From a virus (taxonomy: Duplodnaviria > Caudoviricetes): a stretch of 64,000 bases of DNA. Positions within the stretch are counted from its first letter, which is position 1. Each line of letters starts with the position of its first letter. Under the pieces are notes generated by a model. That model saw nothing but the letters and a program-made list of their open reading frames with translations. It was not told where the DNA came from and did not search any database. The DNA lies in IMG/VR virus record IMGVR_UViG_3300033069_001185, positions 32,001-96,000 of that record; one strand, 5' to 3'. The position numbers and the translations under genes are program-made. Below are positions 778 through 50,922 of this stretch, piece by piece.

Positions 778-807
778 AGACTATCAATATCTACTGACTC
801 CTGTCAA
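778..807 (-). promoter_or_regulatory. sigma70-like promoter TTGACA-N18-TAGTCT with extended TG
   Basis: Minus strand aggTTGACAggagtcagtagatatTGaTAGTCT; same architecture at 1895-1924 and 42845-42874. Confidence 0.6.
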
Positions 808-875
808 CCTGAAAAGATCGTCGAGGTTCAAATACACTTCTCACCTACGGCTTCTTTGGTGGTTAGCTTCTTCAT
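784..875 (-). pseudogene. collapsed remnant of NxDD-tail family gene
   Basis: ATG at 875 gives MKKLTTKEAVGEKCI* (compare LKKLTQEE at 44362); another frame gives VYLNLDDLFRLTGVSRY*, the family C-terminal motif. Confidence 0.55.
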
Positions 876-1612
876 TAGATATCGACAAGGACTCTTTTCC
901 AGAAGTCTTTGTTCTCATTTTCCCGTTTGTAGCCCATTGGGTTTGCTAGAACATGTGTGCCAGCATTGTCATAGTCACAGGCCGTATGGGTATGGCCATG
1001 GAGCCAGTTCTTCGGATGCTCGGTCATGCTTGTTGCACAGTTGTCATAGAAAAAACAATTCAAATTGCTTCCACGGTGCTTTGGAGCAACGCTTTTGATA
1101 AACGGAAGATGATGGCTGATTACTGTAGTCTCCGGAGTGATCTTAGGCAATAGGTCCTTCTTGAATCTTTCGTTCAATCGATAGGCAGTGGTTTGAATAT
1201 CGTCCACATGGATATAATCGGTAAATCGAGTCAGCCAGTACAGTTCGGTGTCGGGCCGAGGAAACCACAACGTACCTCCAAGAAAATGTTTGCCTTGGAC
1301 TGTTTTTTCTGTATTGTTAAGTAAATGTACGTTTTTATAACCTATTGATTCAAATGTTTTGGTCGCCAGTTCGATGCTAGTAGCATAGGATTCATGGTTG
1401 CCGAACACATATAAAACGTCTTTGTACATACCAGCAAACCGATCCATTTGCTTCTTGGCTCGTACTTGATGTTCGGCAGACCAGTTAGTAATGTCACCAG
1501 CAAGTACCAGCAAATCAACCTTTGGTTGGTGACCTAGCTTATAGAAAAACTGATCAACATCTTCGTTTAATAGGTGTTCGAAGTGCAAGTCACTACATAG
1601 ATGGATTTTCAT
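875..1612 (-). CDS. calcineurin-like metallophosphoesterase
   Basis: Motifs SDLH, AGDI, GNHE, SHH, HGHTH. Confidence 0.92.
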   Translation of the reverse strand: MKIHLCSDLHFEHLLNEDVDQFFYKLGHQPKVDLLVLAGDITNWSAEHQVRAKKQMDRFAGMYKDVLYVFGNHESYATSIELATKTFESIGYKNVHLLNNTEKTVQGKHFLGGTLWFPRPDTELYWLTRFTDYIHVDDIQTTAYRLNERFKKDLLPKITPETTVISHHLPFIKSVAPKHRGSNLNCFFYDNCATSMTEHPKNWLHGHTHTACDYDNAGTHVLANPMGYKRENENKDFWKRVLVDI

Positions 1613-1854
1613 GGTAGCGTTTGTTCCGGAGGAGCGATTTTGTTAGATTCAAGGGTCTTCACAACAGCTTCTAGTCCGATGGAATCAACAAGGCTTTCGA
1701 AATCACTCTTTGAATTCAGGAGATAAATGCAGGCGGCTTCAGGGCCTGAACGAGAAGCATCGAAAAACCCACGGGTGTAAGCTTCCGCCTCGGCTTCTGT
1801 ATCAAAACGTTCAACAGAGAAATCAGACACATGAACAATGAAAAGAACGTACAT
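1609..1854 (-). CDS. hypothetical protein
   Basis: AAGGAG RBS upstream; ATGA overlap with the next gene. Confidence 0.7.
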   Translation of the reverse strand: MYVLFIVHVSDFSVERFDTEAEAEAYTRGFFDASRSGPEAACIYLLNSKSDFESLVDSIGLEAVVKTLESNKIAPPEQTLP

Positions 1855-1894
1855 AACATTAATCTCCTTGGTAAGACAGTCTTTTAGATTGAGT

Positions 1895-1924
1895 ATGGTA
1901 TCATACTTATCAATACTGTGTCAA
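1895..1924 (-). promoter_or_regulatory. sigma70-like promoter TTGACA-N18-TACCAT with extended TG
   Basis: gagTTGACAcagtattgataagtaTGaTACCAT in the divergent intergenic gap. Confidence 0.7.
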
Positions 1925-1946
1925 CTCTTCAAAAGGAATATATCAA

Positions 1947-2327
1947 ATGAATACCAAGAGCTTTACTGTTGATGTAAAAGGATCTGTTACTGGGGAAACC
2001 TACAAAGGCTTGTTCAAGGTGAAACCTCTTTTATCACACAAAGACAAGCTTCGTCGTGACGAAATTCGCAGATCTTTGCTAGGAGAGAAAGCCACTGACG
2101 CCAGCGAGAATGCGCAAACTATGGCCAGCATTTTTAGCAAAATCTACATCCACGTTATAGACGCACCGTCATGGTGGACCAATGCAGATAACGGTTCAGA
2201 CCTATTAGACGAAGAACCTGTACAACAGGTATTGACCGAAATCCTGAAAATTGAATCAGATCAGATTGAATCAGTCAAGAAACAGGGCGAAGAAGCCAAA
2301 AAGGTCTTAGCTACCGAAGAGAAGTAA
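1947..2327 (+). CDS. putative tail assembly chaperone (gpG-like)
   Basis: AAGGA RBS; small protein two genes before the tape measure; APSWW motif. Confidence 0.6.
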   Translation: MNTKSFTVDVKGSVTGETYKGLFKVKPLLSHKDKLRRDEIRRSLLGEKATDASENAQTMASIFSKIYIHVIDAPSWWTNADNGSDLLDEEPVQQVLTEILKIESDQIESVKKQGEEAKKVLATEEK

Positions 2328-2329
2328 AC

Positions 2330-2836
2330 GTGAATTACTACGAAGCCCTCAGACTGAGGGCTATGCGGTCCGTTTTGAAGCCGGACTCAGACTATCAAAT
2401 CCGTAATGTACTTCGATGGTATAGCAAAACATACCATACTCCCCTACATTTTGTCGAAACTCTACCATTAGAGGTCATTTTTACGGCCTTCTATGAAGAA
2501 CAATACGAGAAAATGTCTGAGGAAGACCGTGAAGCTGAATTGCAAGCTTTGCTAGAAACCGACGAACAAAGAATCGCCAGAGAGAAGCGAAAAGACGAGG
2601 AAGAGGCTTCTGAGTATGAGTTCTTCAACCTGACAGCCAAAGCTTCCGCCGAAAAGAAATCCCCAGCAAAAGACGTTATATCAAAAATTCCGGATAGGTT
2701 TGACCAACTATCACAGTCTCTCAAAGACTTCAATGATAAACTAGAGGCTTTAGATCCCAAACCTCCTCCAGAGATTGATATGAAGTTCGTTTCCGAGTCG
2801 GAATTCGAAGATTTACTCAAGGGGAAGCCAGAGTAA
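2330..2836 (+). CDS. putative second tail chaperone (gpT-like)
   Basis: Acidic helical protein directly before the tape measure; RWYSKTYHTPL motif. Confidence 0.5.
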   Translation: MNYYEALRLRAMRSVLKPDSDYQIRNVLRWYSKTYHTPLHFVETLPLEVIFTAFYEEQYEKMSEEDREAELQALLETDEQRIAREKRKDEEEASEYEFFNLTAKASAEKKSPAKDVISKIPDRFDQLSQSLKDFNDKLEALDPKPPPEIDMKFVSESEFEDLLKGKPE

Positions 2837-2866
2837 TCTCTATATCAATACCCCCACACTTAGTCG

Positions 2867-5329: not shown

Positions 5330-5331
5330 AA

Positions 5332-7269: not shown

Positions 7270-7271
7270 AA

Positions 7272-8345: not shown

Positions 8346-8352
8346 GCCCATT

Positions 8353-17067: not shown

Positions 17068-19503
17068 ATGCCTAATTTCGTTACCGACCTCACCACACTA
17101 CCAAACGGCAAGTCAGACCTGATTGTTAGTCCAGTTCCCGCTAACAATAAAGTAACTGCTACCGAGTGGAACACTACCATTCAGGCGGCTTACGATCTTC
17201 GTGGCCAATTACTTGAAGGTAACTATCACGGTCTTGTTGACACTATGACAGGAACGGCAGTTTCCGCTGCCGGTAAGTCTAGATTCAGACAGCGTGGGAA
17301 TTTCCTAGAAACGTCGATTGACGGCGCGCACTATCAAGTCATCAGCGAGAAAACTCCCGGTGTTATCAATGTTTGCTCGTTCGGAGCCGTCGGTGACGAC
17401 GCTACGGACAACGCTGCGGCTTTTGAAGCTGCATTTGCTTCGATTCCGAAAGACACGACCTATGGTAGAACGATTTACATTCCTCCGGGCAAGTATCGTT
17501 TTTCCAGATCTCTTAACATTACTCGCTGCGTAGTTCTATGCGGAGCTAGCGGTTGGGGCTGGTATTCTTCAAGTGTACTGAAATTCCCTGCCGGTGTCCA
17601 CGGCCTAATTATTCACGCTTACAATACGAATCCTGACGGCGAGCCCTTGCCGGGTGGTAACTGGGTAAGCGCTGGCTGGTCGATCTTGAGAGATTTCGGC
17701 GTAGAGTCCATGGGTTCAAACGCGACTACGGCCCATGGCGTGATTATGTATGCCCGTGCCAAGCTAGAAAACATGCATATTACTGGCTTCGAAAACGGTA
17801 ACGTTGTCAATATCGACACGACCTCCGGTGCCTTACCTGCATGGACACCATCTACTACCTATCGCGTAGGCGACTCTGTACATAACGCTACCGTCTGGGC
17901 TCCTTCTACAAGCTACGCTGCTGGCGATCGTGTATCAAACGCTGGGGAGTATTATTTCTGTGTCAGTCCCGGCACTTCAGCCGCTTCAGGCGGTCCTACT
18001 GGTCTTGGCGCGGGAATCGTAGACGGCGGCGTGACTTGGGATCGTTATAGTGGTTGGTATTACTGCAAAGGTGCAGGCACTTCAGCCGCTTCCGGTGGGC
18101 CGTCTGGCGTTAACTTCAGCATTGCCGATGGAGGTGTTACTTGGGGTTATATTGCCGGTACGAATGCGAACGGCTGGCAAATTTGGAACTGTCGAATCAC
18201 TGGTGGTATTAATTGCATCTATACTCGTGGCGGTGACGCCAATGCCGGAATGGCACTCGGTGTTGATACCGGCTACGCCACTAACCATTGTTTCTCTGAA
18301 AACTCGTTTCTGGGGAATGCATACATTGCCTGCCAAGCAGACTCAGGCGGTGGTATTCCTTACTACGCTATGAATGCCGCAGCGTCAAGCTCTTTTATCC
18401 ATTGCTATGCCGAAAACAATGTTAATCCATCAGAAATTCACCCCAACAGCACAGTTATTGGTGGCTGCACCGGCGCAGGGTTTCCCACTAGACCTTCTGG
18501 AGTAATCGGAAGACGAGCGGGTCCTATGGAATTCCAGTACCAGTACGGAACCGATAGGTTCACTACATTCGGTGAAGGGTCTTTCATGAGTATTTCTGGC
18601 TATGACAATGCCATTCGGTTTGTAGATTTCGGAACCACATATAGCGCTGGTGCCACCAGTCACATGTATACATGGAATTGGGCCGGTGCAGCCGGATTCA
18701 CGGGTTGGGGCTTCGCTGCTGACGATCGAGCGCATTATAAATATGGTTTTGAGGCTTCTAGATATGTCAATCCTACCCAGCTATGGACAGGTATCGGGTA
18801 CGGCTTACTAAACGAAGGCAAACGTATATCAAACTGCAATCCAACGGCTGGACAAACAAAACCGGCTCTGCAAGGCTTAGGGTTTGGTGGTCCAGTAACT
18901 GCTCAGTCCGGAGATATTGCTTTCAATAGACAGGCTGGTCGTGGTGATCCTCTTGGTTGGGTCTGTACCTCTTCCGGCACCGATTCTACATATGTTGGTG
19001 GACTAACGGCAACCACTAATGGTACAACCACCGTGACGCTTTCCGGTCCAAATCACATTACTCACGGCATTCAGGTTGGCGATCGTATTCAAATCGCAGG
19101 GACCTATACTCGCTTGGTTACCGACCGTGACGGTCCTAACTCAACTACCATTACGGTTGATTCTTCTGTTCCTGCTGGATCTGGTCAGGCCATTACGTAT
19201 GTCGCATCAACTTGGGCACGTATGCCGAGGATCGAAGGTGGGGCTATTGATAGTTCTGGAACTCCGGGGAATGTAACCCAAAATAGCTATTCAGGTCAAG
19301 TCGCATTTGCGATCGCTGGAACGACCGTAGTAGTCACCAACGCCTTTGCAGCAGTTGGTGACTACTGTTTGGCTACACTACAAACCGCCGACGGTACACT
19401 TACTTCCGTATCGGCTAACGTAACGGCCAGCACCATCACTTTAACAGGGAATGCACCTGCTACTGGCGTAACAAAGTGCTACTGGAAGCTTGAGAAGGCA
19501 TAA
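17068..19503 (+). CDS. tailspike / receptor-binding protein with pectate-lyase-like beta-helix and CBM-like inserts
   Basis: INVCSFGAVGDDATDNAAAFEAA...IYIPPGKY; WTPSTTYRVGD and WAPSTSYAAGD repeats. Confidence 0.8.
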   Translation: MPNFVTDLTTLPNGKSDLIVSPVPANNKVTATEWNTTIQAAYDLRGQLLEGNYHGLVDTMTGTAVSAAGKSRFRQRGNFLETSIDGAHYQVISEKTPGVINVCSFGAVGDDATDNAAAFEAAFASIPKDTTYGRTIYIPPGKYRFSRSLNITRCVVLCGASGWGWYSSSVLKFPAGVHGLIIHAYNTNPDGEPLPGGNWVSAGWSILRDFGVESMGSNATTAHGVIMYARAKLENMHITGFENGNVVNIDTTSGALPAWTPSTTYRVGDSVHNATVWAPSTSYAAGDRVSNAGEYYFCVSPGTSAASGGPTGLGAGIVDGGVTWDRYSGWYYCKGAGTSAASGGPSGVNFSIADGGVTWGYIAGTNANGWQIWNCRITGGINCIYTRGGDANAGMALGVDTGYATNHCFSENSFLGNAYIACQADSGGGIPYYAMNAAASSSFIHCYAENNVNPSEIHPNSTVIGGCTGAGFPTRPSGVIGRRAGPMEFQYQYGTDRFTTFGEGSFMSISGYDNAIRFVDFGTTYSAGATSHMYTWNWAGAAGFTGWGFAADDRAHYKYGFEASRYVNPTQLWTGIGYGLLNEGKRISNCNPTAGQTKPALQGLGFGGPVTAQSGDIAFNRQAGRGDPLGWVCTSSGTDSTYVGGLTATTNGTTTVTLSGPNHITHGIQVGDRIQIAGTYTRLVTDRDGPNSTTITVDSSVPAGSGQAITYVASTWARMPRIEGGAIDSSGTPGNVTQNSYSGQVAFAIAGTTVVVTNAFAAVGDYCLATLQTADGTLTSVSANVTASTITLTGNAPATGVTKCYWKLEKA

Positions 19504-20096
19504 TGATAATTTTTCAAGGCTTATTTCCACTAACTGACGATTCCGGCTCAGATCTGGTTGTCACTTCTGTGACTGCCAGTCCGGGCAATGTTGTTGTTGT
19601 GTTTAGTCACGCAATAACATTAACTGGCGCCTCTATCGTGTTTAGCAATTGGGTCATTAGCGGTGGAGTCTCTCCTCCTGCCGTTCTTAATGTTAGTCTG
19701 GTTGGCAATGTAGTAACAATAACTACGCCAGAAGATATTCTTGGGCAAACAAGAACGTTAACCGTACCTAACGGTATTGTTAAGTTTTCTGATGGTGCCC
19801 AAACCCTGCAAGCACCTTTCAGCTTCAATTTCCCAAGCTCGGGCGTCACTCCGATCGTAACTGGTATTGTTAACAGAGATGCCAAGACCATTGAGGTTAT
19901 TTTCAGCGAACCTGTGGTTGAATCAGAAGCCTTGAACATAGCTAACTACAGCATCTCGCCGTCTTTGGCCATAAGATCTGCCTCAAAAGTCCAAGACAAC
20001 CGTTACAGATTGGATTTGCTTCAGTTCCAAACGCCAGCAATAGAATACACGCTGACTGCGACTAATATTCACGATCTTGCTGGTAATGTTATTTAA
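19503..20096 (+). CDS. virion protein with two Ig-like (Big-type) domains
   Basis: IEVIFSEPV...ANYSI...YTLTATNIHDLAGN pattern. Confidence 0.7.
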   Translation: MIIFQGLFPLTDDSGSDLVVTSVTASPGNVVVVFSHAITLTGASIVFSNWVISGGVSPPAVLNVSLVGNVVTITTPEDILGQTRTLTVPNGIVKFSDGAQTLQAPFSFNFPSSGVTPIVTGIVNRDAKTIEVIFSEPVVESEALNIANYSISPSLAIRSASKVQDNRYRLDLLQFQTPAIEYTLTATNIHDLAGNVI

Positions 20097-20222
20097 AACC
20101 TGCTTTCCAGACGAGGCCAACCCAACAATCGCATCCGAAGTCCGAAGAAGTGCTTGCTGTCCGTACTTCCCGCTAGAACTTAGCCAGCGATAGTTATCGT
20201 CAAGCTTAGATCTTACGCCCAT
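20097..20222 (-). pseudogene. truncated third paralog of the pentapeptide/NxDD family
   Basis: MGVRSKLDDNYRWLSSSGKYGQQA resembles ARMDDHDLWLESKGTLGKRA of 20609-20962; the frame then runs into the convergent + strand gene. Confidence 0.45.
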
Positions 20223-20602
20223 TTTTTCTCCAGAAGCTCTTGATAGTCATCCATATTCAACGTCAATCCTGAACGCCAGATAGGAGGAGTTAGTGATGGA
20301 ACGTCAGGGGCATCTGTGTCCAGTCTCCAGCCCATATTACCTAATACTCGTATGGAGCATTCTTTAAAATATGCATCGACGAAAGCGGTTGATTGCCAAG
20401 TGACGCTCGCAAAATGACAACCATGGAAAACGGTGTTCTTTAACACAGCGTTTGGTCGAAAGACCGCTAACTTAAAGTTTTGGTTTTGAAATACCTGATC
20501 GGCCAGCATAGAGCCTTCAACAATGAGCCTTTGGCCTTTGGTGCTGTCTGTTAGCCACAATACGTGGTTACGCAACATGTAGGGAATGTTATAATTTGAC
20601 AT
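20213..20602 (-). CDS. pentapeptide-repeat-like protein with NxDD tail
   Basis: NHVLWL...KGQR cap, F-x4 repeats, C-terminal LNMDDYQELL. Confidence 0.75.
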   Translation of the reverse strand: MSNYNIPYMLRNHVLWLTDSTKGQRLIVEGSMLADQVFQNQNFKLAVFRPNAVLKNTVFHGCHFASVTWQSTAFVDAYFKECSIRVLGNMGWRLDTDAPDVPSLTPPIWRSGLTLNMDDYQELLEKKWA

Positions 20603-20963
20603 ACAGTGCTAGACCCCAAGTTCCCTGAGAATGTCTTTTCTATCAATGCCTTCTCGCCAGAAATTACTTAAATCCCCAGAATCGTTAGGGGCGTATTCGC
20701 AATCTATAAATTGCGCTGTTGATATATCACAAGAACTGGTAAGGTCGCTACCGCGAAAATCGCAATTCTCGAAACATGCCATGCCAAAGTCTACATTAGC
20801 GAACAAAACCTTACGAAAACTTCGGCTGACAATTCGTTCGTTCGGAAAGGACTCGTCGATAAATTGGGCTCTTTTCCCCAAAGTACCCTTGGACTCAAGC
20901 CACAAATCATGATCGTCCATTCTGGCTGCTATTGTTTTGGCGCTAATGTTATAATTTGACATA
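20585..20963. repeat. 19-bp direct repeat AATGTTATAATTTGACATA at 20585-20603 and 20945-20963 (5' ends of both genes, MSNYNI)
   Basis: Exact match read from the sequence. Confidence 0.9.
20609..20962 (-). CDS. pentapeptide-repeat protein
   Basis: HDLWL...GKRAQF; FANVDFGMACFENCDFRGSDL. Confidence 0.8.
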   Translation of the reverse strand: MSNYNISAKTIAARMDDHDLWLESKGTLGKRAQFIDESFPNERIVSRSFRKVLFANVDFGMACFENCDFRGSDLTSSCDISTAQFIDCEYAPNDSGDLSNFWREGIDRKDILRELGV

Positions 20964-38499: not shown

Positions 38500-38916
38500 T
38501 TACCATAAATTTGCATAAAGTCGATACATATCGTCTAGATTGGCCGTAACATCACCAACATCACCTAATAGCAAGTCATTTGCATCTGCCACAAGAAAAT
38601 ATTTGTTAGGACCAAACATAATGGCGCAGGGCGAGTAGGTGCTTAGGGCAAAATTCTTAGCCTCAAGAATGCTTAGATCTAGCACACAGTTTGAAAAACA
38701 GGCTCCTTCTACATCAGCACCGAAGAAGTCGATTCTATCCATTTTTAATGTACCAACCTTTTGAAACTTAGAAGAACTGAAGTCAATTCCTCGCAAATCC
38801 ATATTGCTAAAATTTGCTCGACAGCCGGTCCGCTTACTACCGTGTCTAAGCTGATATAGCCATGCGTGATGTTCTCGTACTGAGTTTATAACCTCGGTGT
38901 AAGAAGGTCTATACAT
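38500..38916 (-). CDS. pentapeptide-repeat protein with NxDD tail
   Basis: EHHAWL...GCRANFSNMDLRGIDFS; tail ANLDDMYRLY. Confidence 0.8.
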   Translation of the reverse strand: MYRPSYTEVINSVREHHAWLYQLRHGSKRTGCRANFSNMDLRGIDFSSSKFQKVGTLKMDRIDFFGADVEGACFSNCVLDLSILEAKNFALSTYSPCAIMFGPNKYFLVADANDLLLGDVGDVTANLDDMYRLYANLW

Positions 38917-39358
38917 ATAGATGCTCGAATAGTCGATAGAAATCGTCTATATTCAGACTATGTGGTCCATGTGGCCCATTCGACGAAGACATGAGATGAG
39001 CCAGATCTTTAAATTGTAAGTCCGGACATGCTTTCAAATAAAACCCGGCCCCTATTTTAGTTTCGTATGCGATATAGATGATGTTCTCTTGGGAGCTACT
39101 ACTCCGTAGCGCAGCGCTAATAGCTCCTTTGGCATGAAATAGCCAAGTAGCTGTGATTATGCATGTAGAGATATTCGCGCTTTCGAAATTGGTCCGACTA
39201 TCATAAATCACGCTTGTAAAATCCCAGCCCTTAAGATCCATACCAGACACATCCATACAGCTAAGATCGGCCCGCGCTCCGGTTCGTCCAGCAGTATCTA
39301 ACCATGATATATGGTCAGCACACATTATATCGATATCATACTGCGTAGGCCTATACAT
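38909..39358 (-). CDS. pentapeptide-repeat protein with NxDD tail
   Basis: DHISWL...GARADLSCMDVSGMDL; tail LNIDDFYRLF. Confidence 0.8.
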   Translation of the reverse strand: MYRPTQYDIDIMCADHISWLDTAGRTGARADLSCMDVSGMDLKGWDFTSVIYDSRTNFESANISTCIITATWLFHAKGAISAALRSSSSQENIIYIAYETKIGAGFYLKACPDLQFKDLAHLMSSSNGPHGPHSLNIDDFYRLFEHLYV

Positions 39359-41049: not shown

Positions 41050-41216
41050 TTGAGTAGATCTCTCTTCTTTAGCTTGAGGGTTTTGATTAGCTTATTAAGA
41101 TTAGCGGCAACCGACTTATTAAGCTTATTCGAAGGCTCGGCCTGCAAAAAGTACCGAAGAACCAGCCTGTCTTCACCCTCGCCTACACGCACTACTATAT
41201 CAATCTTAGTTTTCAT
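41046..41216 (-). CDS. small basic hypothetical protein (56 aa, not in ORF track)
   Basis: MKTKIDIVVRVGEG...KKRDLLK, with ATGA overlaps at both ends. Confidence 0.6.
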   Translation of the reverse strand: MKTKIDIVVRVGEGEDRLVLRYFLQAEPSNKLNKSVAANLNKLIKTLKLKKRDLLK

Positions 41217-42202
41217 TTATGTTCAGTCCCGCTGTTGCGCATTTTATATTCTTCGCTCACTGCCTTCAGGACCACACGACCGACTTCCATATCGAATGTT
41301 TCCTTGGTTGGTCGCAAAATCACACCTTCCCGGATTGTATTGGCATCCAACGTAGACATGCCTGACCGGAGAGCTAGAACTTCTTCTGTGAAAGGGCCTC
41401 TGTAGAGTTCCGGAACGTTTTCCAGACCCACAGAATTCACCATCGCAACCCGATCGTCATAATCCAGAAACTTTCGGGCAACAGTGTCAAAAATATCAAA
41501 GACCTTGAACCTAAAACCCTCTTCCGGAGGAACTCCATACTTAAGGTCTTGAACCGCTCCATATGTTTCTCCAAAGAAGGCCATGTTAGGACAAGCCTTC
41601 AGCCTGTTCTCCAAATCATACTTCAGGGCGATTTTCCACCACAGGCTGTTACCGTCCTTCTTTTTGATGCACCCGTGACTACCAACCCACAGACGATCAT
41701 CCTTGTACAAGAAGCGACTATTGCACCCATGGATCTTTTCTGTGACTACAACGTCTTCTCCGGACTTCAATACCGGATACTTGAAATAAGACTCAACGGA
41801 ATATACTGGCATGTACTGAGGATCTGACTCATTGTCGGTCCTCATACTGAAATCTTCCGGCTCTACATACTTGGTTACTCCAAGAGATTCGGAAGCTTCT
41901 TGACCCTCTTGCATATCGATACTGGGCTTAATCAGAACGCCTTCTGAATAGATACCGCGAAGACGAACCGGCTTGATTCTGTATGTACCGCCTTTGCCCT
42001 TCTTATCCAAGAAGGAGAACTCCGGACGGGCTAGATCTACTACTGCGTCATAAGGAACATAAACGGCCAGATCCCCAACAGAGAATTGCTCTGTTCTGAA
42101 AATGACGTTCTGGCCGAAAACCTGTGTTATTGATAGAGAATCAGCATTTGGGTGCTTGCCAAGCTTATCAATCTTAACGACCTGTACGCTGAAATTGCTC
42201 AT
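41213..42202 (-). CDS. RNA ligase (DRB0094/Rnl5-like) with N-terminal OB fold
   Basis: HPNADSL N-terminus, TEKIHG motif I, FFGE, VFDI, REGVI, LKAVS. Confidence 0.9.
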   Translation of the reverse strand: MSNFSVQVVKIDKLGKHPNADSLSITQVFGQNVIFRTEQFSVGDLAVYVPYDAVVDLARPEFSFLDKKGKGGTYRIKPVRLRGIYSEGVLIKPSIDMQEGQEASESLGVTKYVEPEDFSMRTDNESDPQYMPVYSVESYFKYPVLKSGEDVVVTEKIHGCNSRFLYKDDRLWVGSHGCIKKKDGNSLWWKIALKYDLENRLKACPNMAFFGETYGAVQDLKYGVPPEEGFRFKVFDIFDTVARKFLDYDDRVAMVNSVGLENVPELYRGPFTEEVLALRSGMSTLDANTIREGVILRPTKETFDMEVGRVVLKAVSEEYKMRNSGTEHK

Positions 42203-42205
42203 TGG

Positions 42206-42515
42206 TTATCCCCAAAATAGTCTATAGCAATCATCCAGATTAATGATTGTGTTGTGACTATACACTTCTATCTGGTCAATTGTCAATGACGGTCTATCTT
42301 TTTCTTTAGAATTAATATACACACCCTAGCGTTCCGCAAAACAAAACGCAACTTAGGTGTGAGCCAGTAAAATCACAATATCGACAATCAGATCCCGAAA
42401 AGTCAATACCAAGAAGGTGGTATCCGGCGAAGTTTGCATGGGACAGATTCATTTTCGTAAAACTACCTCGGCCATAAAGAATTTTTCTGATTTCTTTTTG
42501 AGTAGGTCTCTACAT
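42206..42515 (-). pseudogene. pseudogene of pentapeptide/NxDD family
   Basis: ATG TAG AGA CCT ACT CAA (M*RPTQ versus paralog MYRPTQ); NLSHANFAG..LLGIDFSGSDCRYCDFTGS; frameshift near 42320; tail IINLDDCYRLFWG*. Confidence 0.75.
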
Positions 42516-42838
42516 TACAGTTTCATTTTCTGAAGTCTGCCTTCAGAGTTAGTGAAAAATACAGTCTTTACTCCGTTCTGCCTCAAATATTCTTCACACT
42601 TCGGACATGGCTTGGCATTGCCGAATGTACCATCTTTCCTGAACCGGATCGAATAGACTTTTGTTCCTTTGCGCATACTGGGCCAAAGACATTCCAAAGC
42701 TCTCACTTCTGCGTGTACTTTATTGAAGTTGGACTTAAAGGCGACAATAGCGCCGCCAGAAACCACAAAAGCCGCATGATGATGCTGCTTGTGGTTTGAC
42801 TTTCGACAAGTTTTGATAGCAGATTCAAGATTAAACAT
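42515..42838 (-). CDS. Zn-dependent cytidine/dCMP deaminase-fold protein
   Basis: HAE and PCPKC motifs. Confidence 0.85.
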   Translation of the reverse strand: MFNLESAIKTCRKSNHKQHHHAAFVVSGGAIVAFKSNFNKVHAEVRALECLWPSMRKGTKVYSIRFRKDGTFGNAKPCPKCEEYLRQNGVKTVFFTNSEGRLQKMKL

Positions 42839-42844: not shown

Positions 42845-42874
42845 TTTATATCACATAATGATATGAAATGTCAA
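42845..42874 (-). promoter_or_regulatory. sigma70-like promoter TTGACA-N18-TATAAA, leaderless deaminase mRNA
   Basis: aggTTGACAtttcatatcattatgTGaTATAAA, then 6 nt to the ATG. Confidence 0.72.
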
Positions 42875-43160: not shown

Positions 43161-43333
43161 TACTCGTCACCGTTTTCGGTGTTTGCTTTGATATAGGCCT
43201 CAAATTCTGCAATCTTCTTTTCTACTGCCTTCATCTTTTCTTCTAGGATAGCTACGGTATCGACACAGCGATCAAACTCGTCGCACGCTGAGCACTGATA
43301 ACCGTTATAATAGTCTTCGCATGTACATTTCAT
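43160..43333 (-). CDS. small Cys-rich coiled-coil protein (57 aa)
   Basis: MKCTCEDYYNGYQCSAC...; ATGA overlap. Confidence 0.55.
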   Translation of the reverse strand: MKCTCEDYYNGYQCSACDEFDRCVDTVAILEEKMKAVEKKIAEFEAYIKANTENGDE

Positions 43334-43974
43334 CGGAAACGCTCCGTTAAGATATCAAAAACAACCTTTTCAACTGTAGCACGATCTGGTTCGTCTGGCA
43401 ACAAAGACTTGTTTTTGATATCTGCCCATGACTCTTTGTAGTAGACAAATTCTTTCTCAACGTCAGACCACGGCGTCTGACCAGAACGGATCTTCAATAA
43501 ATCGGGGATATCCTTTTCTCTCCTTACGACAAACCCTCCGGTCGTTAAGACCTCGTTCCCGGTACGAAGGAGTCTGATTAGGTGCATTGCGTCTTTTCTG
43601 TCAAAGCCGTTCTTGATAATTCTTTGGTAATTGCCAATAGCATAGCCTAGATATGTATGGGCGAGCTTCTTGCTTAGGAAAGCCCTCCTGTGAGTTCTCA
43701 GTTGGCTAGCGAACTCGTCTTCAAACAGGATGCAATCCCTAGGAGCAAATAATGTTTCCAACACGTTGGGATTGCCGGACAAGCACATATTGATATACTT
43801 ACGGAACTCCCAAAACATGACATCGCCATCGCCTGCAATTGACTCAGGCCCTTTGCTAAGGCCAAAGAAGTGTTGGTCCGATGGAAGATACCAGCCACGG
43901 ATATCTAGATCTGAATCTTGAACATTAGTTCCATACATGTAACTACCTGCGATTACTTTGTAATTAGGATTCAT
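43330..43974 (-). CDS. Pol-beta-family nucleotidyltransferase (RlaP/YcgL-like)
   Basis: GSYMYG...SDLDIRG, GNPNVLETL, KDAMHLIRLL. Confidence 0.85.
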   Translation of the reverse strand: MNPNYKVIAGSYMYGTNVQDSDLDIRGWYLPSDQHFFGLSKGPESIAGDGDVMFWEFRKYINMCLSGNPNVLETLFAPRDCILFEDEFASQLRTHRRAFLSKKLAHTYLGYAIGNYQRIIKNGFDRKDAMHLIRLLRTGNEVLTTGGFVVRREKDIPDLLKIRSGQTPWSDVEKEFVYYKESWADIKNKSLLPDEPDRATVEKVVFDILTERFR

Positions 43975-44362
43975 ACCATTCCATAAAGTCGTCTATGTTC
44001 ATAAGAGTATCGCTTGAATGGTCCTGCCATTCCTTGTCGATGCGGTCTGTCGTATGTTCACCAATTCCAAACCACCATACTACACTGAAACTTTTCGGTT
44101 TCAGCCAGTTGAATTTAACGAATCTTGCCTCAAGTAGCTGTTTCTTTGACAAGTCGGTGTCCCGAAAAACACAGCTATTGAATACAGTGCCAGTAAGCTT
44201 TGTGTTTGTAAAGTTGCTTTTTCTTAGCAACCTATTCGAGAAAATCAATCCCGATAGATCCATATTGCTAAAATCAGCAGGTATGAAATTAGGATCAAAC
44301 CAGCGGATTTCGTCTGTTTTGTCAAGATAACAATCCAGTTCTTCTTGGGTTAACTTTTTCAA
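43964..44362 (-). CDS. pentapeptide-repeat protein with NxDD tail (start likely TTG at 44362)
   Basis: ADFSNMDLSGLIFS..SNFTNTKLTGTVF; tail MNIDDFMEWY. Confidence 0.8.
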   Translation of the reverse strand: MKKLTQEELDCYLDKTDEIRWFDPNFIPADFSNMDLSGLIFSNRLLRKSNFTNTKLTGTVFNSCVFRDTDLSKKQLLEARFVKFNWLKPKSFSVVWWFGIGEHTTDRIDKEWQDHSSDTLMNIDDFMEWYES

Positions 44363-44760
44363 AATTCCCCCCAAAACTGCAACCAATTATCAACATTTAA
44401 CTGAGGATTAAAGAGCCTATTGCATAATAGTAATAGACCGTCCATGTCTTGGGAGTCCGGAGCGTCGGTAGTAAGTTCAATATATCTACCGCCTGCTGTT
44501 TTGTATATCCTACAACGACCAAAATAGGCGCTCAGTAGTTGTTCTGTAGTAAAGTAACAGCCAGAAATGTCACTATAAAAAAACGTAGCACCCGTCAGCT
44601 TGCAATTGGTAAAATTGCTATATGAGAAATCAAAATTGCTAAAGTCGGTCCAAGACAGATCCATATCGCTAAAATCAGCCCGTTGGCCCTTAGAAGAGTC
44701 CGCTAGCCATTTCACATGCTCAGTGTTAATTTCTAGAAGAGTGGGTCTAGTCAATATCAT
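44359..44760 (-). CDS. pentapeptide-repeat protein with NxDN tail
   Basis: EHVKWL..KGQRADFSDMDLSWTDFSNFDFSYSNF; tail LNVDNWLQFW. Confidence 0.82.
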   Translation of the reverse strand: MILTRPTLLEINTEHVKWLADSSKGQRADFSDMDLSWTDFSNFDFSYSNFTNCKLTGATFFYSDISGCYFTTEQLLSAYFGRCRIYKTAGGRYIELTTDAPDSQDMDGLLLLCNRLFNPQLNVDNWLQFWGEF

Positions 44761-44761
44761 A

Positions 44762-45982
44762 TCAATACCAACAAACACTCAAGTTCTGTTTTGATCTCGT
44801 AAGTGCCGTATACAGCCAGCGACGGCCCGTCATACTGAAAGGCTTCACTGTTTCCTCCAAGACCACCAATACGTCATTTGCCTCTGAACCCTGAGACTTA
44901 TGACAACTCAGTACATAGCCGTAATTTGCACTTACATATACACAGGATTCCGGCAGAACTCCAGAGCTTTTCTTTCTTTTGAGGAGTTTCTTGCACCCAT
45001 TGCTAGCTGCCGACGGGCTGATCTTCATTTCGCCTTGGAGTTCTTGTTGGGAGATCAGACAGTGTTTACCCCCAACAAGCTCTACATACCAGTAATCAAC
45101 GATATCGCTCTGTCCTGTGAACCGATCTGTTACCTTTACGGTTTCAATTCTTTCGACGACCCGTTTGATTACATAGACTTCGCCATTCAGTACCTCATTG
45201 ATATAGTTATTCTTGATAATCAACAAAGGCTCGGTGTCTTCTGGACGACTCATTCGACCGAGCGTTTTTCTGATTGCTTGGTTCAGTCTGTGTCTCGTTT
45301 CGTTGGTGTGGCAAATCACCATACCTTCTTTGGACCATATATCAATACTTTTATCAATAAGCTCGGTCTTATCAACAGAAGGCACGTCGGAAAGTTGTAG
45401 GGCGAATGAATTAGAAGTCCTGACTGCCGTAGCCACCTTGATTATGATACTTTCTTCTGCTTGCCTAAGAACTTCAGACAGGTTCACCCTATAGTCGGCA
45501 TCCATAAGGAAAACACTGAAGCCTGCGTTTTCGGTATCGACCGGGGGTAATTGGAATTCGTCACCAATCAATATCAGGTTTTTGCCCACATTGCTACAAG
45601 TTTCTAGAAGATCTTTGTATAGATCGAAAGTAACCATTGAGGCTTCGTCGATAACGATTGCGTGGTACTTTGGCAGTTCTATATCAATAAGGTCCTTGGA
45701 GGTAAAGTCTAGATTGCCGGTGTTTTGGTCTTCTTTGACTGAATACATCCATTTATGGATCGTTGAGGCTCTGCAACCGGCTACTTCTGCGGCTCTTAGA
45801 GCTGCTTTTCCCGTCGGAGCCAGAACCAGAATACCGTCGGTCTCAGCCAATACTCTCAAAAGACTGGTCTTACCAGTCCCAGCCGGACCATTAACAATAC
45901 AGACGCCTCCTCCGTTAGGGTGCGAAATTCCCAAGTCACGAAAGGCATCCAAAGCCTGTTGCTGTCCTTTTGTTAAGTTCAC
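44762..45982 (-). CDS. SF1B helicase (Dda/RecD2-like)
   Basis: GPAGTGKT, APTGKAA, DEASM, GDEFQLPPV, HKSQGSE, YTALTR. Confidence 0.92.
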   Translation of the reverse strand: MNLTKGQQQALDAFRDLGISHPNGGGVCIVNGPAGTGKTSLLRVLAETDGILVLAPTGKAALRAAEVAGCRASTIHKWMYSVKEDQNTGNLDFTSKDLIDIELPKYHAIVIDEASMVTFDLYKDLLETCSNVGKNLILIGDEFQLPPVDTENAGFSVFLMDADYRVNLSEVLRQAEESIIIKVATAVRTSNSFALQLSDVPSVDKTELIDKSIDIWSKEGMVICHTNETRHRLNQAIRKTLGRMSRPEDTEPLLIIKNNYINEVLNGEVYVIKRVVERIETVKVTDRFTGQSDIVDYWYVELVGGKHCLISQQELQGEMKISPSAASNGCKKLLKRKKSSGVLPESCVYVSANYGYVLSCHKSQGSEANDVLVVLEETVKPFSMTGRRWLYTALTRSKQNLSVCWY

Positions 45983-47121
45983 TCTAGGATGTCCATACGA
46001 TTTGGGCCAAAACTCGCTGCAAATTCAACGGTCGGGAAAGTAGATCTCATAAAGTCTAGAACTTCGTAAACGAAAGCGCCTAAAGTGAGACCTTGTGCCG
46101 GAATGTACTTGGCAGAAAAGCCAAGTCCGAATGCCGAAAAGCTACCATATTGATACAATACGTCAAGCTTCGTCAGGTACACCTTATAGCACCCATTGAT
46201 ACGAATTGCATACTGAAGTTCTTTGAGGTCCATGTGAGCAATCCTGCGAGGTCGTCCAGTAGTCGCTCCGAATTCCCCGCCCAATTGTCGCAAACCCTCT
46301 GCTGCTGCGATCTCCCACTCATAAGGAAGATGCCCATTGCCAACTCTAGTAGTATAGGCCTTTGCTACGCCGATACAGTTATTGATATAGTGAGGGGGAA
46401 AACCAGTGCCAGTTGCGGCTCCACCAGCCGTACAATTGCTGCTAGTGACATAAGGATAGGTGCCGTGATCAACGTCTAGCATTGTTCCTTGCGCGCCTTC
46501 GAAGATCACACCGCCAGAAGCAATCATGTCTGGCACAAGGTCTTCCACAGAGAACCGATTTGGAAAAGAGTTTCCAGACAGACCAATAACCCGCAAGCCC
46601 TTTCTCCCAACCTTGTCTTCGTAGGCCGGTCCAATCCCTCGATTCGTAGTACCAATATGACCGTTTGTTTCTTTGTCCCTCGAAACGTGCTCTTTGGTTA
46701 TGACATGAGCCCTAGGACTCACGTAAATATTGCTTTCCGTATCCACTCCTAGATCGGAAATCATCTTGATCTCGTCATTTAGCTGATCAATATCGACGAC
46801 ACAGCCGTTACCGATAAAGCAAGTCTTACGGCTAAAGATTCCGGAAGGCACTTGGTGCAAAACCACTTTCTTCCCATTATCCAGATAGACCGTATGGCCA
46901 GCGTTGTTGCCGCCTTGATAACGGGCAACGTATCGATAGTACCCGTCTCGGCAAAGGTAGTCAATGATTTTACCTTTACCTTCGTCTCCGTACTGTAAGC
47001 CTACAACTACTGTATTTAATCTTGGCAATTTACGGCTCCACTTGAGATATTTCGCAGATTCTACACCATTACCCATGAAACAACAACCCCGAGGGTTCGC
47101 CTCGGGGTTTATATCATTCAA
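45979..47121 (-). CDS. purA: adenylosuccinate synthetase (compact form)
   Basis: QYGDEGKGK, NNAGHT, EGAQG, YPYVTSS, TTGRPRR, TKLD. Confidence 0.93.
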   Translation of the reverse strand: MNDINPEANPRGCCFMGNGVESAKYLKWSRKLPRLNTVVVGLQYGDEGKGKIIDYLCRDGYYRYVARYQGGNNAGHTVYLDNGKKVVLHQVPSGIFSRKTCFIGNGCVVDIDQLNDEIKMISDLGVDTESNIYVSPRAHVITKEHVSRDKETNGHIGTTNRGIGPAYEDKVGRKGLRVIGLSGNSFPNRFSVEDLVPDMIASGGVIFEGAQGTMLDVDHGTYPYVTSSNCTAGGAATGTGFPPHYINNCIGVAKAYTTRVGNGHLPYEWEIAAAEGLRQLGGEFGATTGRPRRIAHMDLKELQYAIRINGCYKVYLTKLDVLYQYGSFSAFGLGFSAKYIPAQGLTLGAFVYEVLDFMRSTFPTVEFAASFGPNRMDILE

Positions 47122-48505
47122 AATCAGACAGCATGTAGGTATCAGACTCTTTGGGGATCAGTTCTTTGTAGTTCTCACTCAAGAACCACTTCCAGCGGTG
47201 GGGAAATTCCGGTCTGACGTGATCACCATACCCGTCAGTGATTACCCAAACAGTTGAAGGGTACTTGGACTCTTTCGCCTGAACAATCTTTTGGATACCG
47301 TCTTCAATACAACTGAAACTGGTTCCGCCGAATCCATAAGCCTTGCCTGATTTCAAGTCGGTCGGATAAACCTGTGTATCAAAGCAGAACAATTTAACAT
47401 CAAACCGCTCTTCTGGCAATGTCCGTGCTGCATTGAAGAACCGCTGAGCAAGGTGGGCACAGCTACCGGAGGTGTCCAAGAAGAACCAGACACAAATCCG
47501 TGACTTCTCGTACTCGTCGATCTCGTCCTCTGAAGGAAGCATCAGGTCGCTCGACAATGTAGCAAATCGGCGTGCGGGCTTGATCCATTGTTCGTCGATT
47601 TTAGCCTCAAGGTACTTGCGAGCCCAGTCTTTGACAATGGTCTCCCACTTTTTCTTTGGGAAAACTTTTTCTGTCTTGACGTTCACCCAGCTATTGCCAG
47701 CATCAGCACCAGCCTTCTTGGTGGGAGAATCAACTTTCTTCTCAAGTTCCTTAAGCTCTTTTTCCACCATTTGCTTGAACTTCTTCTTGGCCTTCATGTC
47801 ATTGGAGTCTGTATTATCCAGAACCTCTTTCATGGCCTGTTCAAACTCTTTGGTAACGAAAGACTCAAGCCCGTCGTGGTCGTCAACCGACGACATTGAG
47901 TCAACTTGCTGGCCAAAGCCCGGAGTCTTTTCGAGTTCTTCTTTGATAAGATTGTAGTAGAACTCGAAACTGTTACCTACGGGAGGAATGGCAGATGCCT
48001 TAGCAAAAACCGTGTCAACCCAGCAGTACATATTCTTGGGATCGATCTCTGCCCTATCAAAACCCATGCAATCAACAATGAAGTGATTCACAACGACATC
48101 CAGAGCCAAGTTGGCGTTGTGGAGTTCGGGTCCACGGAGCAAGTTGATGCGTGCTCCATGGTAGAAAAAGACGTGCAAGCATTCGTGGCTGACAACGAAC
48201 AGCTTTTGTTCAAAATTGAGGGAATCCCAAAACACCGGATTAACCACAAAGTCAATGCACTCGCCAATCTTATCAAAATACACAGCCGCAGTCTTGACTT
48301 CCTTAGAAAACCGTGGCTTTGACAGCGACCAGAACTTCTCGAATACCGTGAAGTGTGGCTGGAGCCCTTCTGCCACATCTCGGAACTCTTCCATCGAAAA
48401 CCGACGGTTTGGGATCACCGAAGATTCGTTGTCTGTTTCTGGCACTGCCTGAATGGTTTGTGTTTGCATATTTATGGTTATATCCGGTGTTTGAGTGTGG
48501 GTCAA
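47114..48505 (-). CDS. metallopeptidase-like (HExxH) plus VWA domain protein (DUF2201 type)
   Basis: HECLH, LDTSGS MIDAS motif, GGTSF, ITDG. Confidence 0.88.
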   Translation of the reverse strand: MTHTQTPDITINMQTQTIQAVPETDNESSVIPNRRFSMEEFRDVAEGLQPHFTVFEKFWSLSKPRFSKEVKTAAVYFDKIGECIDFVVNPVFWDSLNFEQKLFVVSHECLHVFFYHGARINLLRGPELHNANLALDVVVNHFIVDCMGFDRAEIDPKNMYCWVDTVFAKASAIPPVGNSFEFYYNLIKEELEKTPGFGQQVDSMSSVDDHDGLESFVTKEFEQAMKEVLDNTDSNDMKAKKKFKQMVEKELKELEKKVDSPTKKAGADAGNSWVNVKTEKVFPKKKWETIVKDWARKYLEAKIDEQWIKPARRFATLSSDLMLPSEDEIDEYEKSRICVWFFLDTSGSCAHLAQRFFNAARTLPEERFDVKLFCFDTQVYPTDLKSGKAYGFGGTSFSCIEDGIQKIVQAKESKYPSTVWVITDGYGDHVRPEFPHRWKWFLSENYKELIPKESDTYMLSDFE

Positions 48506-48511
48506 CGTTTA

Positions 48512-49918
48512 TTATGGAGTGGGCGTATTGCGCATTTGAGTCATCTTGCCCACAACCGTCTTTGCGTCAATCAAAGTATCCCACTTGACTCCCGCCTGTT
48601 CCAGAACCTTGGTGACATACGCAAACATGGGAATCAGGTTCTTGTATCGTTCACGCATCACGGTGGGGTGACTGGCTCCAGAGCAGACACCTTCAATCAT
48701 CTTGATTGCTTCGGTAGCGGACGCTGAAGTCAGATCCTTTGAGGGGAGTTCCTTGTTCAATTCGTCGTAGAGAGCTTGACGAACCTGAGTACCATTGACC
48801 GGCATGGCCTTCAGGGCTTGAATTTTAGAAGCAAATCCCTTCTCGGTAGCATTGGGATTGTCCCACGTCTCTTTGCTCAGGTCCAAGTCTGAGATGCTGG
48901 TGTGCTTGAGGATAACCGCCTTGCAAGCTTCTGACATTTGACCAGACTTTGAAGCAGCAATCTCTTTGATAACAGACTTGAACTCTTCGTAGTTCGCATC
49001 AGAAAGGACGTGCTCCTTTACATTTGCGTGCTGGTTCATAAGCGTGGTGATGCGCTCAGAGCCAATCACTGGCAAGAAGAACGAAAGAAGGGCTTCTTTC
49101 TTGACAATGTGGGGGTGGGCAACGGCATAGTTGTTTTCACCAGCCAACCACTTACGAGCAGCGGCTTTGTCACCAGACTTCATGAGTTTCTCAAGCTGCT
49201 GGGTCGTAGGACCATTACGCAACTGGGTCAGGAGCGTAGCGTGATTGATACTTTCGTGGAGCAGTGGCCGGATATCGCCGTCCATTGTGTGCATGTCGAG
49301 GACGTAATCCAGACGACGAGGTGAAAGCTTGTCCTTGGCCTCAGGCTTCAGTTCGTTCCACCACTCAATGGCCACGTCGGCAACTTCCCGACCAAACTTC
49401 TTTCGGAAATATTCCGCATCAGGCTTGTAAGCCACATTCACAATCACCTGAAAGCGGTCCATTTGTGCAGGATCCAAAGCCTCGACATCATACTTACTGG
49501 CCTCGTCTTCCTCAGGATTGACAGCCGCCCAAACCATCTTGAGATTCGGGAACTTTTTCCCGTTGATTGACTTGAACTGGATGATCTCCATCATCGCGTT
49601 CTTGACCTTCTTTGGGCAACGGTTTGCTTCGTCGAGGAAGATCGCCTCAATCTCAGGATCGAGGAAAGCCTTAGGACGAACAAGATCGAGGTACTTTTCG
49701 CCAGTCTTTTCGTCCACAAACTCCTTCGGAATGCCGATGAAGTCTACGAATGCGTCAAGGGTGGCTCCCGAGAAGTACAGATACTTCTTGCCGTTGCGCT
49801 TGAAAGCCTCCAGAACTCGGGCAGTCTTACCAACGCCGTGCTTACCACGGAGAAGGACGTTGAGGTTGTTCTTGATCCAGAAATCGAGGTTTGAGTCAGT
49901 AAAGTGATTAGCAGCCAT
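48512..49918 (-). CDS. MoxR-like AAA+ ATPase, partner of the VWA protein
   Basis: GKHGVGKT, FLDEANR, LDPAQMDRF, SPRRL. Confidence 0.88.
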   Translation of the reverse strand: MAANHFTDSNLDFWIKNNLNVLLRGKHGVGKTARVLEAFKRNGKKYLYFSGATLDAFVDFIGIPKEFVDEKTGEKYLDLVRPKAFLDPEIEAIFLDEANRCPKKVKNAMMEIIQFKSINGKKFPNLKMVWAAVNPEEDEASKYDVEALDPAQMDRFQVIVNVAYKPDAEYFRKKFGREVADVAIEWWNELKPEAKDKLSPRRLDYVLDMHTMDGDIRPLLHESINHATLLTQLRNGPTTQQLEKLMKSGDKAAARKWLAGENNYAVAHPHIVKKEALLSFFLPVIGSERITTLMNQHANVKEHVLSDANYEEFKSVIKEIAASKSGQMSEACKAVILKHTSISDLDLSKETWDNPNATEKGFASKIQALKAMPVNGTQVRQALYDELNKELPSKDLTSASATEAIKMIEGVCSGASHPTVMRERYKNLIPMFAYVTKVLEQAGVKWDTLIDAKTVVGKMTQMRNTPTP

Positions 49919-49979
49919 TTGTGTTTGACCTTTGGTTTGTTTGTTTAGTTTTGTACAACGATTGTGGTTCTACGCTCTT

Positions 49980-50429
49980 TTAAGAAGCTGTCAACTGCTG
50001 TTCGGCTTTTTTGTACATTATTGATACAACGTTTTGGAATGACATTCCTTTTGATACTTCCAAGGTAATATCAAAAAACTGATCTTCCGTCAAGCTGAAA
50101 GAGGGTCGTGAATACAAGACCCTATTGGTCGCCGCAATTACCTTAAGAAAGGCTTCATCAAACGGAGCCAACTTGAAGATAAAAAGATTGTTGACACTCA
50201 CCCAAATCCCGGTCTTATCTGGCTGAAGAACCAGACACTTGTCTCCGAAGTGATTCCGGGCATATGCAGTTACTATTCCATAGGTGCCAATAGGAAACTT
50301 ACGGCCCTTTGTAACAATAACGATATCTCCAACAATCGGAGGGTTGGGGATCTTTGACTGAGAGTGGTAGCTGGCAAGAGCTTCGATACGGTCTGCGGGA
50401 AGTGAAAGGAACTGTTGGGTTTTGTTCAT
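49980..50429 (-). CDS. hypothetical protein with SH3/KOW-like segment
   Basis: GDIVIVTKGRKFPIGTYG. Confidence 0.6.
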   Translation of the reverse strand: MNKTQQFLSLPADRIEALASYHSQSKIPNPPIVGDIVIVTKGRKFPIGTYGIVTAYARNHFGDKCLVLQPDKTGIWVSVNNLFIFKLAPFDEAFLKVIAATNRVLYSRPSFSLTEDQFFDITLEVSKGMSFQNVVSIMYKKAEQQLTAS

Positions 50430-50441
50430 TCCTTACTTATA

Positions 50442-50699
50442 TCAAGGCTCTTCACTGTTTACAAGATCATAAACATAACAATAATCGTCTAGATTCATTT
50501 CTACGTTTTCTAAATTTTTCTGAATATTTGGCTTCGAACCAATTTTTTTGTCAAGGGATTTACGTTCAATATCTATCTTGTCACACTGAATCGAAATATC
50601 CAGATATCCATATATCCGGGCAATCCTACTTGTTCCTGCGCTTACTCTGTCAGAACCAAGAACAGCAAGCAAAAGAGAGGGGCTGGTCAAGTTATTCAT
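50442..50699 (-). CDS. small protein with NxDD tail, no pentapeptide repeats
   Basis: Tail EMNLDDYCYVY. Confidence 0.65.
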   Translation of the reverse strand: MNNLTSPSLLLAVLGSDRVSAGTSRIARIYGYLDISIQCDKIDIERKSLDKKIGSKPNIQKNLENVEMNLDDYCYVYDLVNSEEP

Positions 50700-50922
50700 C
50701 GGTATCTAGTAGCTCGTAAAACCTATAGTAGTCGTCTAAGTTGACTGAAAGCTTAGAAAAGGAGCTTAGCCTAAGGTTGTCAAATCCGTCGAGATCTAAA
50801 CAAGCATTACTGACAAAAATAGAAGCGCCGTCGGTTGCTGAGCCTGCAAACGTATAGCCGTGACTGAGGTCATACTTGCTGAGCTTTTCTGGCAAAGCCA
50901 GATATTTGTTCTTTTTCTTCAT
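50692..50922 (-). CDS. small protein with NxDD tail, no pentapeptide repeats
   Basis: Tail SVNLDDYYRFY; ATGA overlap. Confidence 0.68.
   Translation of the reverse strand: MKKKNKYLALPEKLSKYDLSHGYTFAGSATDGASIFVSNACLDLDGFDNLRLSSFSKLSVNLDDYYRFYELLDTDE

Follow-up and report, generated by a model that had tools for sequence, protein, structure and literature searches.

Why should small proteins encoded at scattered loci of one phage genome end in nearly the same short tail? The question is raised by a 64,000-nucleotide stretch of DNA (here called the window) from IMG/VR virus record IMGVR_UViG_3300033069_001185. The analyzed window consists of bases 32001-96000 of a 128,385-bp virus contig, and "genome" coordinates below refer to that whole contig. 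A preliminary description had listed nine window loci whose products share an N-x-D-D tail and had read them as modular effectors with a common docking tag. We found all nine loci in place, on the minus strand. Our best explanation for them, which we hold with moderate confidence, is a lineage-specific family of accessory pentapeptide-repeat proteins (PRPs) whose C-terminal helix acts as a tethered element for interaction and is selected in its own right.

We searched the six-frame translation with a profile of the C-terminal region (alignment A2) and found that 12 intact genes were set apart from the rest, with E values of 1e-14 to 6e-22. Below them came three remnants at 8 to 14 bits, and nothing else exceeded 7.4 bits. 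Together with one gene whose tail has diverged (20609-20962), this gives about 16 copies: 12 intact, 1 diverged, and 3 broken. Ten of the 13 members are short PRPs with a common N-terminal helix, and the other three are proteins of 63 to 85 amino acids (aa) that carry the tail only. Looser N-x-D candidates (genome 369, 22784, 23560, 26534, 26788, and 27161) scored at most 6.3 bits by the family profile and were rejected.

We defined the tail motif as hydrophobic-N-hydrophobic-D-D/N-aromatic-x-x-hydrophobic. In the six-frame translation of the 128,385-bp genome, we counted 11 full motifs, all on the minus strand and all 11 to 17 residues before the stop, in agreement with the preliminary description that the motif lies near the C terminus. 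That description had also placed every copy on the minus strand; this holds for the nine window loci, but genome-wide one intact member (24646-25167) is on the plus strand. Among 158 crudely called genes, 8 contain the motif, each time inside the last 18 residues. Over 1,000 within-protein shuffles, a proteome held 0.11 motif genes on average (at most 2), or 0.003 if the motif had to lie no more than 20 residues from the C terminus. The suggested comparison with shuffled proteomes thus bears out a C-terminal enrichment.

Across 15 copies, the tail begins with a hydrophobic residue (position -1) and continues with N at position 0 (15/15), a hydrophobic residue at position 1, D at position 2 (14/15), and D at position 3 (13/15). 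An aromatic residue follows at position 4 (Y, F, or W in 12/15), then any residue at position 5, R at position 6 (8/15), L at position 7 (10/15), and a hydrophobic residue at position 8. This pattern fits the start of a helix, with a capping box (N at the N-cap and D at N3) and a hydrophobic staple (N' and N4). The tail is thus predicted to be a C-terminal amphipathic helix of 10 to 12 residues whose face would be formed by positions 1, 4, 5, 7, and 8.

The codons of the tail vary synonymously, as had been proposed. The invariant N is encoded by AAT in 10 copies and AAC in 5, and the first D by GAC in 10 and GAT in 4; usage at both is roughly that of the genome as a whole. The 27-nucleotide (nt) tail core has a mean pairwise nucleotide identity of only 56% between copies. 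Because of this synonymous variation and low nucleotide identity, we conclude that the conservation is at the protein level and is old. We rejected recent copying or a DNA signal as its cause, as there is no conserved nucleotide motif. We likewise rejected overlap with a downstream start codon or ribosome-binding site, since such overlaps reach only the last few codons.

The protein search drew on about 15 billion proteins, with each 50% cluster represented once, and word-based searches covered 5.8 billion clusters. Outside this phage and its sister phages (contigs of 154,917, 82,746, 56,521, and 43,881 bp and smaller), neither found the C-terminal region. A strict back-translated tail pattern searched across viral contigs returned only one near-identical 43.9-kb contig, a scan of genome contigs returned only an unrelated archaeal PRP, and a single-protein word search returned the query alone. 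The sister-phage orthologues P0032, P0033, P0034, P0047, and P0074 (about 55 to 75% identity) all keep the tail pattern. In 11 orthologue pairs, 97 of 110 tail-core residues were identical (88%), with 0 gaps. The 20 residues preceding the tail matched at 142 of 212 positions (67%), with 14 gaps, and the rest of the protein at 938 of 1,123 (84%). This order was the same in 9 of the 11 pairs. Even the diverged tail of 20609-20962 keeps 9 of 10 positions in its orthologue P0074. As judged from these searches and alignments, the tail is real, under selection, and restricted to this phage lineage.

We then compared the window with aligned strain contigs, among them X9 (56,521 bp) and X11. The G-P-H linker of 38909 (window 38957-38990) is 9 nt longer in X11 and 12 nt shorter in X9. 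In X9, gene 50442 has lost 10 nt and 8 nt ahead of the tail, two deletions that jointly leave the tail in frame, and gene 44359 has an 11-nt insertion at 44534. Also in X9, about 247 other bases replace 42328-42503 at the pseudogene locus, and a deletion of 43423-44330 removes most of the RlaP gene along with the 43964 gene. The size of the canonical PRP likewise varies across strains and copies, with 121 aa in a sister phage and 166 or at least 207 aa here. Its two copies in this genome (127762-128385 and 31141-31641) have near-identical C-terminal parts and differ in repeat number. These strain and copy differences show that the family is in rapid flux, by duplication, repeat gain and loss, deletion, and decay, while the tail stays constant.

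The bodies of the PRP members range from 117 to at least 207 aa. They share an N-terminal helix (P-T-x-x-E-I ... H-x-x-W-L), a first coil (G-x-R-A-x-F-S-N-M-D-L), and a cap helix (L-L-x-A-x-F). Most have 2 to 3 degenerate coils in a repeat region of about 50 to 60 residues, and the two canonical copies have many more. PF00805 matched 20609, 38500, 43964, and 44359 at 22.8 to 36.1 bits (cutoff, 20.2), and 20213 matched only related models, below cutoff. We found no Pfam PRP match for 38909, 50442, or 50692; 38909 still aligns with the family. Of the six PRP bodies in the preliminary description, 38500, 43964, and 44359 are thus secure, 20213 is weak, and 38909 is placed by alignment despite lacking a match. 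In two AlphaFold2 (AF2) models, residues 1 to 70 or 80 form the PRP body, with a short strand every 5 residues and a predicted local distance difference test score (pLDDT) of 80 to 95. Consistently with a right-handed quadrilateral beta-helix, the top Foldseek matches were all PRP structures (best E value, 1.5e-3; probability, 1.0). The cap helix is followed by a poorly conserved, beta-prone stretch that often contains a D-A-P-D-like turn; a linker of widely differing length then leads to the tail. Both models place a helix over the tail, but pLDDT beyond the cap helix is only 31 to 62.

The three small proteins bear most directly on whether the tail is a shared element or part of one fold. 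They had no match in Pfam, PHROG, or NCBIfam. We built a hidden Markov model (HMM) from the 50 pre-tail residues of nine PRP members and found that the de-tailed small proteins were absent from its list at E values up to 100; hhalign of the pre-tail regions of the two groups gave a probability of 0.06. In a full-length MAFFT alignment, the small proteins line up with the C-terminal part of the PRPs, a placement without statistical support. At a detectable level, therefore, the tail is the only element that the small proteins and the PRP members have in common. For the 76-aa protein we rejected two weak similarities as chance: a ricin-B-type beta-trefoil (QxW), found only as a CEL-III repeat at E values of 2.5 to 3.9 and 11 to 12 bits with no Pfam match, and a cold-shock protein at E values of 0.84 to 1.1. 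The two unrelated bodies named in the preliminary description (50442 and 50692) thus stand at the level of detectable sequence similarity, and the protein at genome 9039-9230 is a third of this kind.

Taken together, these data agree with a tail that would act as a tethered protein-protein interaction helix that selection has retained separately from the body. Its target would be a common surface, that of another family member, in homo- or hetero-oligomerization, or that of one hub of phage or host. Variable recognition would then fall to the beta-helix, and the three small proteins may be tail-bearing derivatives with other or unrecognizable bodies that bind this surface too, for instance as competitors or adaptors. 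Several points weigh against this explanation. The 11 orthologue pairs stem from a small number of lineages and are not independent of one another. The tail cores of 20213 and P0047 are identical at only 6 of 10 positions, so that on sequence grounds it is the tail pattern that is constrained, not its exact residues. Finally, the AF2 and ESM Atlas models, at low confidence, put a sheet of 3 to 4 strands ahead of the tail, and because of this sheet the tail may instead belong to a small folded domain as its core helix.

That last point leads to the strongest of the alternatives, which we consider possible but doubtful. According to this model, the tail is purely structural, the helix of a small C-terminal alpha/beta domain of 3 to 4 strands that all paralogues inherited, with no shared external partner, and each small protein would be such a domain on its own, its strands now too diverged to be recognized. 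In the AF2 model of P0004, the tail helix comes after four strands, and residues 112 to 153 of the Atlas model align to small beta-sheet domains. A stretch of 45 to 67 beta-prone residues precedes the tail in each small protein, the MAFFT placement fits such a domain, and a capping box with a hydrophobic staple is a folding signal. In contrast, pLDDT in the predicted sheet and tail region is 45 to 62, and outside the tail we detected no sequence signal common to the small proteins and the PRPs. Thus, the earlier proposal that the tail might only cap one paralogous fold finds no sequence similarity upstream of the tail, and structure prediction there is of low confidence. The segment between sheet and helix is also the most variable and indel-prone, with expansion and contraction of G-P-H, which would be unusual inside a compact 50-residue domain. 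For the ESM Atlas model, PAS-like matches at 0.92 to 0.94 had low shared features and matches to small-sheet structures had TM scores of 0.41 to 0.52; we regard both as uninformative.

A more far-reaching reading, which we consider unlikely, makes the tail a portable docking helix: a whole set of early phage proteins, both variable beta-helix recognition modules and small non-PRP proteins, would be drawn by it to one hub, either a host machine or a phage protease or ATPase. The family would then be a phage counterpart of the poxvirus ankyrin/PRANC families or of encapsulin cargo-loading peptides, and the tail-only proteins would be competitors or regulators. The idea of a docking tag is plausible, and the presence of the tail on different bodies supports the modular set with a common tag that was first proposed. 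However, the "variable payloads" of that proposal were overstated, since 10 of the 13 bodies belong to a single paralogous PRP family. What we see is that gene family with three tail-only derivatives and not a collection of unrelated effectors.

We also considered Qnr/MfpA-like DNA mimics, in which the beta-helix would dimerize through the C-terminal helix and, as a dimer, either modulate host gyrase or block DNA-binding defense enzymes. The confirmed PRP fold and the mild acidity of most members fit this model, and in Qnr, MfpA, and AlbG a C-terminal helix does serve dimerization. The likeness to these proteins ends with the fold: size, scores, and charge differ, and the tail has no similarity. 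Qnr-type rods have about 8 to 10 coils and pair into strongly electronegative dimers the size of DNA, whereas most members here have 2 to 3 coils, net charge runs from -8 to +2, and one member has a pI of 8.7. NCBIfam Qnr and MfpA models scored 16 to 31 bits against cutoffs of 240 to 500, which does not support membership. PDB profile matches span the repeat region only and never the tail, and the three small tail bearers have no detectable PRP. Because of the net charge together with the 2- to 3-coil length, we disfavor Qnr-like DNA mimicry; the analogy made in the preliminary description fails on size, family scores, and charge, and the model as a whole seems improbable.

Least probable of all is a packaging or processing signal, by which the tail, like encapsulin cargo-loading peptides or the T4 capsid-targeting sequence, would direct proteins to the prohead for co-injection or to a phage ClpP-like or prohead protease: the tail is C-terminal on several different bodies and the genome's open reading frame (ORF) list includes a putative ClpP-like gene and a prohead protease, but all members lie outside the plus-strand structural operons or antisense to them, and the extreme C terminus beyond the tail core is not conserved, which makes a C-degron unlikely.

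Returning to the interaction helix that we prefer, a strongly specified 10-residue helix on a variable tether, found also on three non-PRP proteins, offers a clean handle on phage PRPs. A single tail peptide could be used as bait for the partner and hence for the pathway of these proteins. Should the partner prove to be a host hub, it would supply a first mechanism for phage accessory proteins of this kind; a tail that serves only in self-association or folding would make the family one more lineage-specific expansion.

The members and remnants are listed in Table 1.

Table 1. Loci of the tail-bearing family. Loci in the text are named by their first coordinate.
Feature	Coordinates	Strand	Details
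Remnant	window 784-875	-	15-codon start piece (828-875) and 18-codon tail piece (784-840) in different frames; tail HMM, 8-11 bits
PRP with C-terminal extension and tail, 129 aa	window 20213-20602	-	profile, 64.6 bits; orthologue P0047 keeps the tail
PRP paralogue with diverged tail, 117 aa	window 20609-20962	-	D-x-x-D capping box, I-L-R-E-L; tandem with 20213
PRP with tail, 138 aa	window 38500-38916	-	start overlaps end of 38909 gene by 8 nt
Degenerate PRP with tail, 149 aa	window 38909-39358	-	G-P-H repeat linker before tail; related P0011
Pseudogene of a PRP-plus-tail member	window 42206-42520	-	stop at codon 2, one frameshift
PRP with tail, 132 aa	window 43964-44362	-	most likely start, TTG 44362, overlaps stop of 44359 gene as TTGA
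PRP with tail, 133 aa from ATG	window 44359-44757	-	GTG at 44778 would give 139 aa
Small protein, 85 aa, tail only	window 50442-50699	-	no detectable PRP
Small protein, 76 aa, tail only	window 50692-50922	-	no detectable PRP; start overlaps stop of IMPDH/GMP-reductase-family gene
Intact member outside window	genome 19674-20141	-	
Intact member	genome 24646-25167	+	N-P-D-Q-F tail variant
Intact canonical PRP member, 166 aa	genome 31141-31641	-	
Second canonical PRP member, at least 207 aa	genome 127762 to contig end (128385)	-	
Non-PRP tail protein, 63 aa	genome 9039-9230	-	
Remnant	genome 19554-19670		start piece and tail piece in different frames; repeat body deleted

The two independent remnants at window 784-875 and genome 19554-19670 are alike: each has a translationally coupled ATG start piece of 15 to 18 codons and an intact tail piece in another frame. 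At 784-875 the repeat body is deleted as well, and its ATG overlaps the stop of an upstream phosphoesterase gene. Both are probably out-of-frame internal deletions, with a frameshift-dependent mini-protein as the other candidate. In the tail of 44359, N replaces the second D and the aromatic residue is W. The 50692 protein was found on 8 contigs from three sources, identical or with 1 residue different. The contig may be circularly permuted or incomplete, as its end cuts off one canonical copy.

The tandem pair at 20213-20962 sits antisense between plus-strand structural genes at 19503-20096 and 20987-25420, in the manner of a moron. A simple promoter and terminator scan around this pair found nothing above shuffles and no sigma-70-like promoter. 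A further group of 3 to 4 small adjacent ORFs at genome 26534-27926, on the minus strand, shares an aromatic-rich Y-x-Y-x-D-Y/W-W motif. One of them has an internal, tail-like M-N-I-D-D-A-Y that scores only 6.3 bits by the family profile. These ORFs may be a separate small paralogue family.

The source phage is uncultured; DNA near-identical or related to its own is present in riverine, freshwater, activated-sludge, and soil metagenomes from several studies. It stands far apart from sequenced phages, to which Megablast found no match. The GenBank phage collection contains no close relative; the only matches were Myxococcus phage Mx1, at 31% identity over one structural protein, and a Listeria phage PRP. 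Large structural proteins occupy a plus-strand block at about 1.9 to 38.5 kb of the window. The minus-strand blocks encode a peptide deformylase, an RNA ligase, a deaminase, an RlaP-type nucleotidyltransferase, a RecD/Pif1-like helicase, an adenylosuccinate-synthetase homologue, and an IMPDH/GMP-reductase-family enzyme. Because the family's genes lie among replication, nucleotide-metabolism, and RNA-repair genes and not in structural operons, a role in host takeover or counter-defense is suggested.

Several of these neighbors can be placed precisely. The RNA ligase (phrog_968; 41213-42202, minus strand) and the RlaP-type RNA-repair nucleotidyltransferase (PF10127; 43330-43974, minus strand) flank family members. 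The adenylosuccinate-synthetase homologue (45979-47121, minus strand; 380 aa; PF00709, 352 bits) adjoins the helicase in a nucleotide-metabolism block, with the IMPDH/GMP-reductase-family gene nearby at 50919-51938. PurZ of 2-aminoadenine (Z-base) genomes is among the phage PurA homologues. At 47114-49918, also on the minus strand, two proteins are encoded one after the other: the first, of 463 aa, has a DUF2201_N putative metallopeptidase domain, and the second, of 468 aa, has no Pfam match.

How does this family compare with known systems? The preliminary description had stated that no described system has this tag, and this is upheld: the tail and C-terminal region had no match in Pfam, in PDB sequences, in DUF5758, or in proteins beyond the sister phages. 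The bodies, in contrast, are of a familiar kind. Generic PRPs (PF00805/PF13599, "YjbI-like") have the same H-x-x-W-L N-helix, A(D/N)LXX coils, and a cap helix of the T/S-x-x-Q-L type, and by Foldseek the predicted fold matches Np275/276, Rfr23, MfpA, and AT2G44920. Unlike the other PRPs among the roughly 15 billion proteins, those of this family are mostly very short and degenerate, with a C-terminal extension and the tail. Wider PRPs with the same N-helix bear other C-terminal parts (DUF5758, BTB_2, channel, or helix-turn-helix), which suggests that the N-helix-plus-PRP module is the common part across PRPs and the C-terminal element is lineage specific. HalA, the Hailong anti-phage effector (PDB 9nyi), matched weakly over the N-helix and PRP (18 to 27 bits with the model and 20.8 bits with the chain). 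We rejected a link to HalA as a PRP decoy: the NF051894 cutoff is 250 bits, the 117- to 173-aa proteins have no transmembrane channel part, and the similarity is of the generic PRP kind.

Salmonella PipB2 joins a PRP body to a C-terminal LFNEF kinesin-docking motif, and human KCTD9 joins BTB to a PRP. The analogy with our family is one of function only, a PRP joined to a short docking or oligomerization element. PipB and PipB2 models matched only the repeats of P0009 (55 to 58 bits; cutoffs, 274 and 354), the docking motif differs, and PipB2 and KCTD9 are eukaryote-directed or eukaryotic proteins, unlike the phage family. The phage PRPs with DUF5758 (PF19062), the domain that phage PRPs usually carry at the C terminus, include P0035 and P0043. 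They likewise combine an N-helix, a PRP of variable length, and a conserved nonrepeat C-terminal module, with copy and repeat numbers that shift fast. PF19062 gave no match to 11 C-terminal regions at E values up to 10, and hhalign of A2 with A7 gave a probability of 0.05. Thus, where the conserved C-terminal part of those proteins is a DUF5758 module, here it is a helix of only about 10 residues, found also on proteins that are not PRPs.

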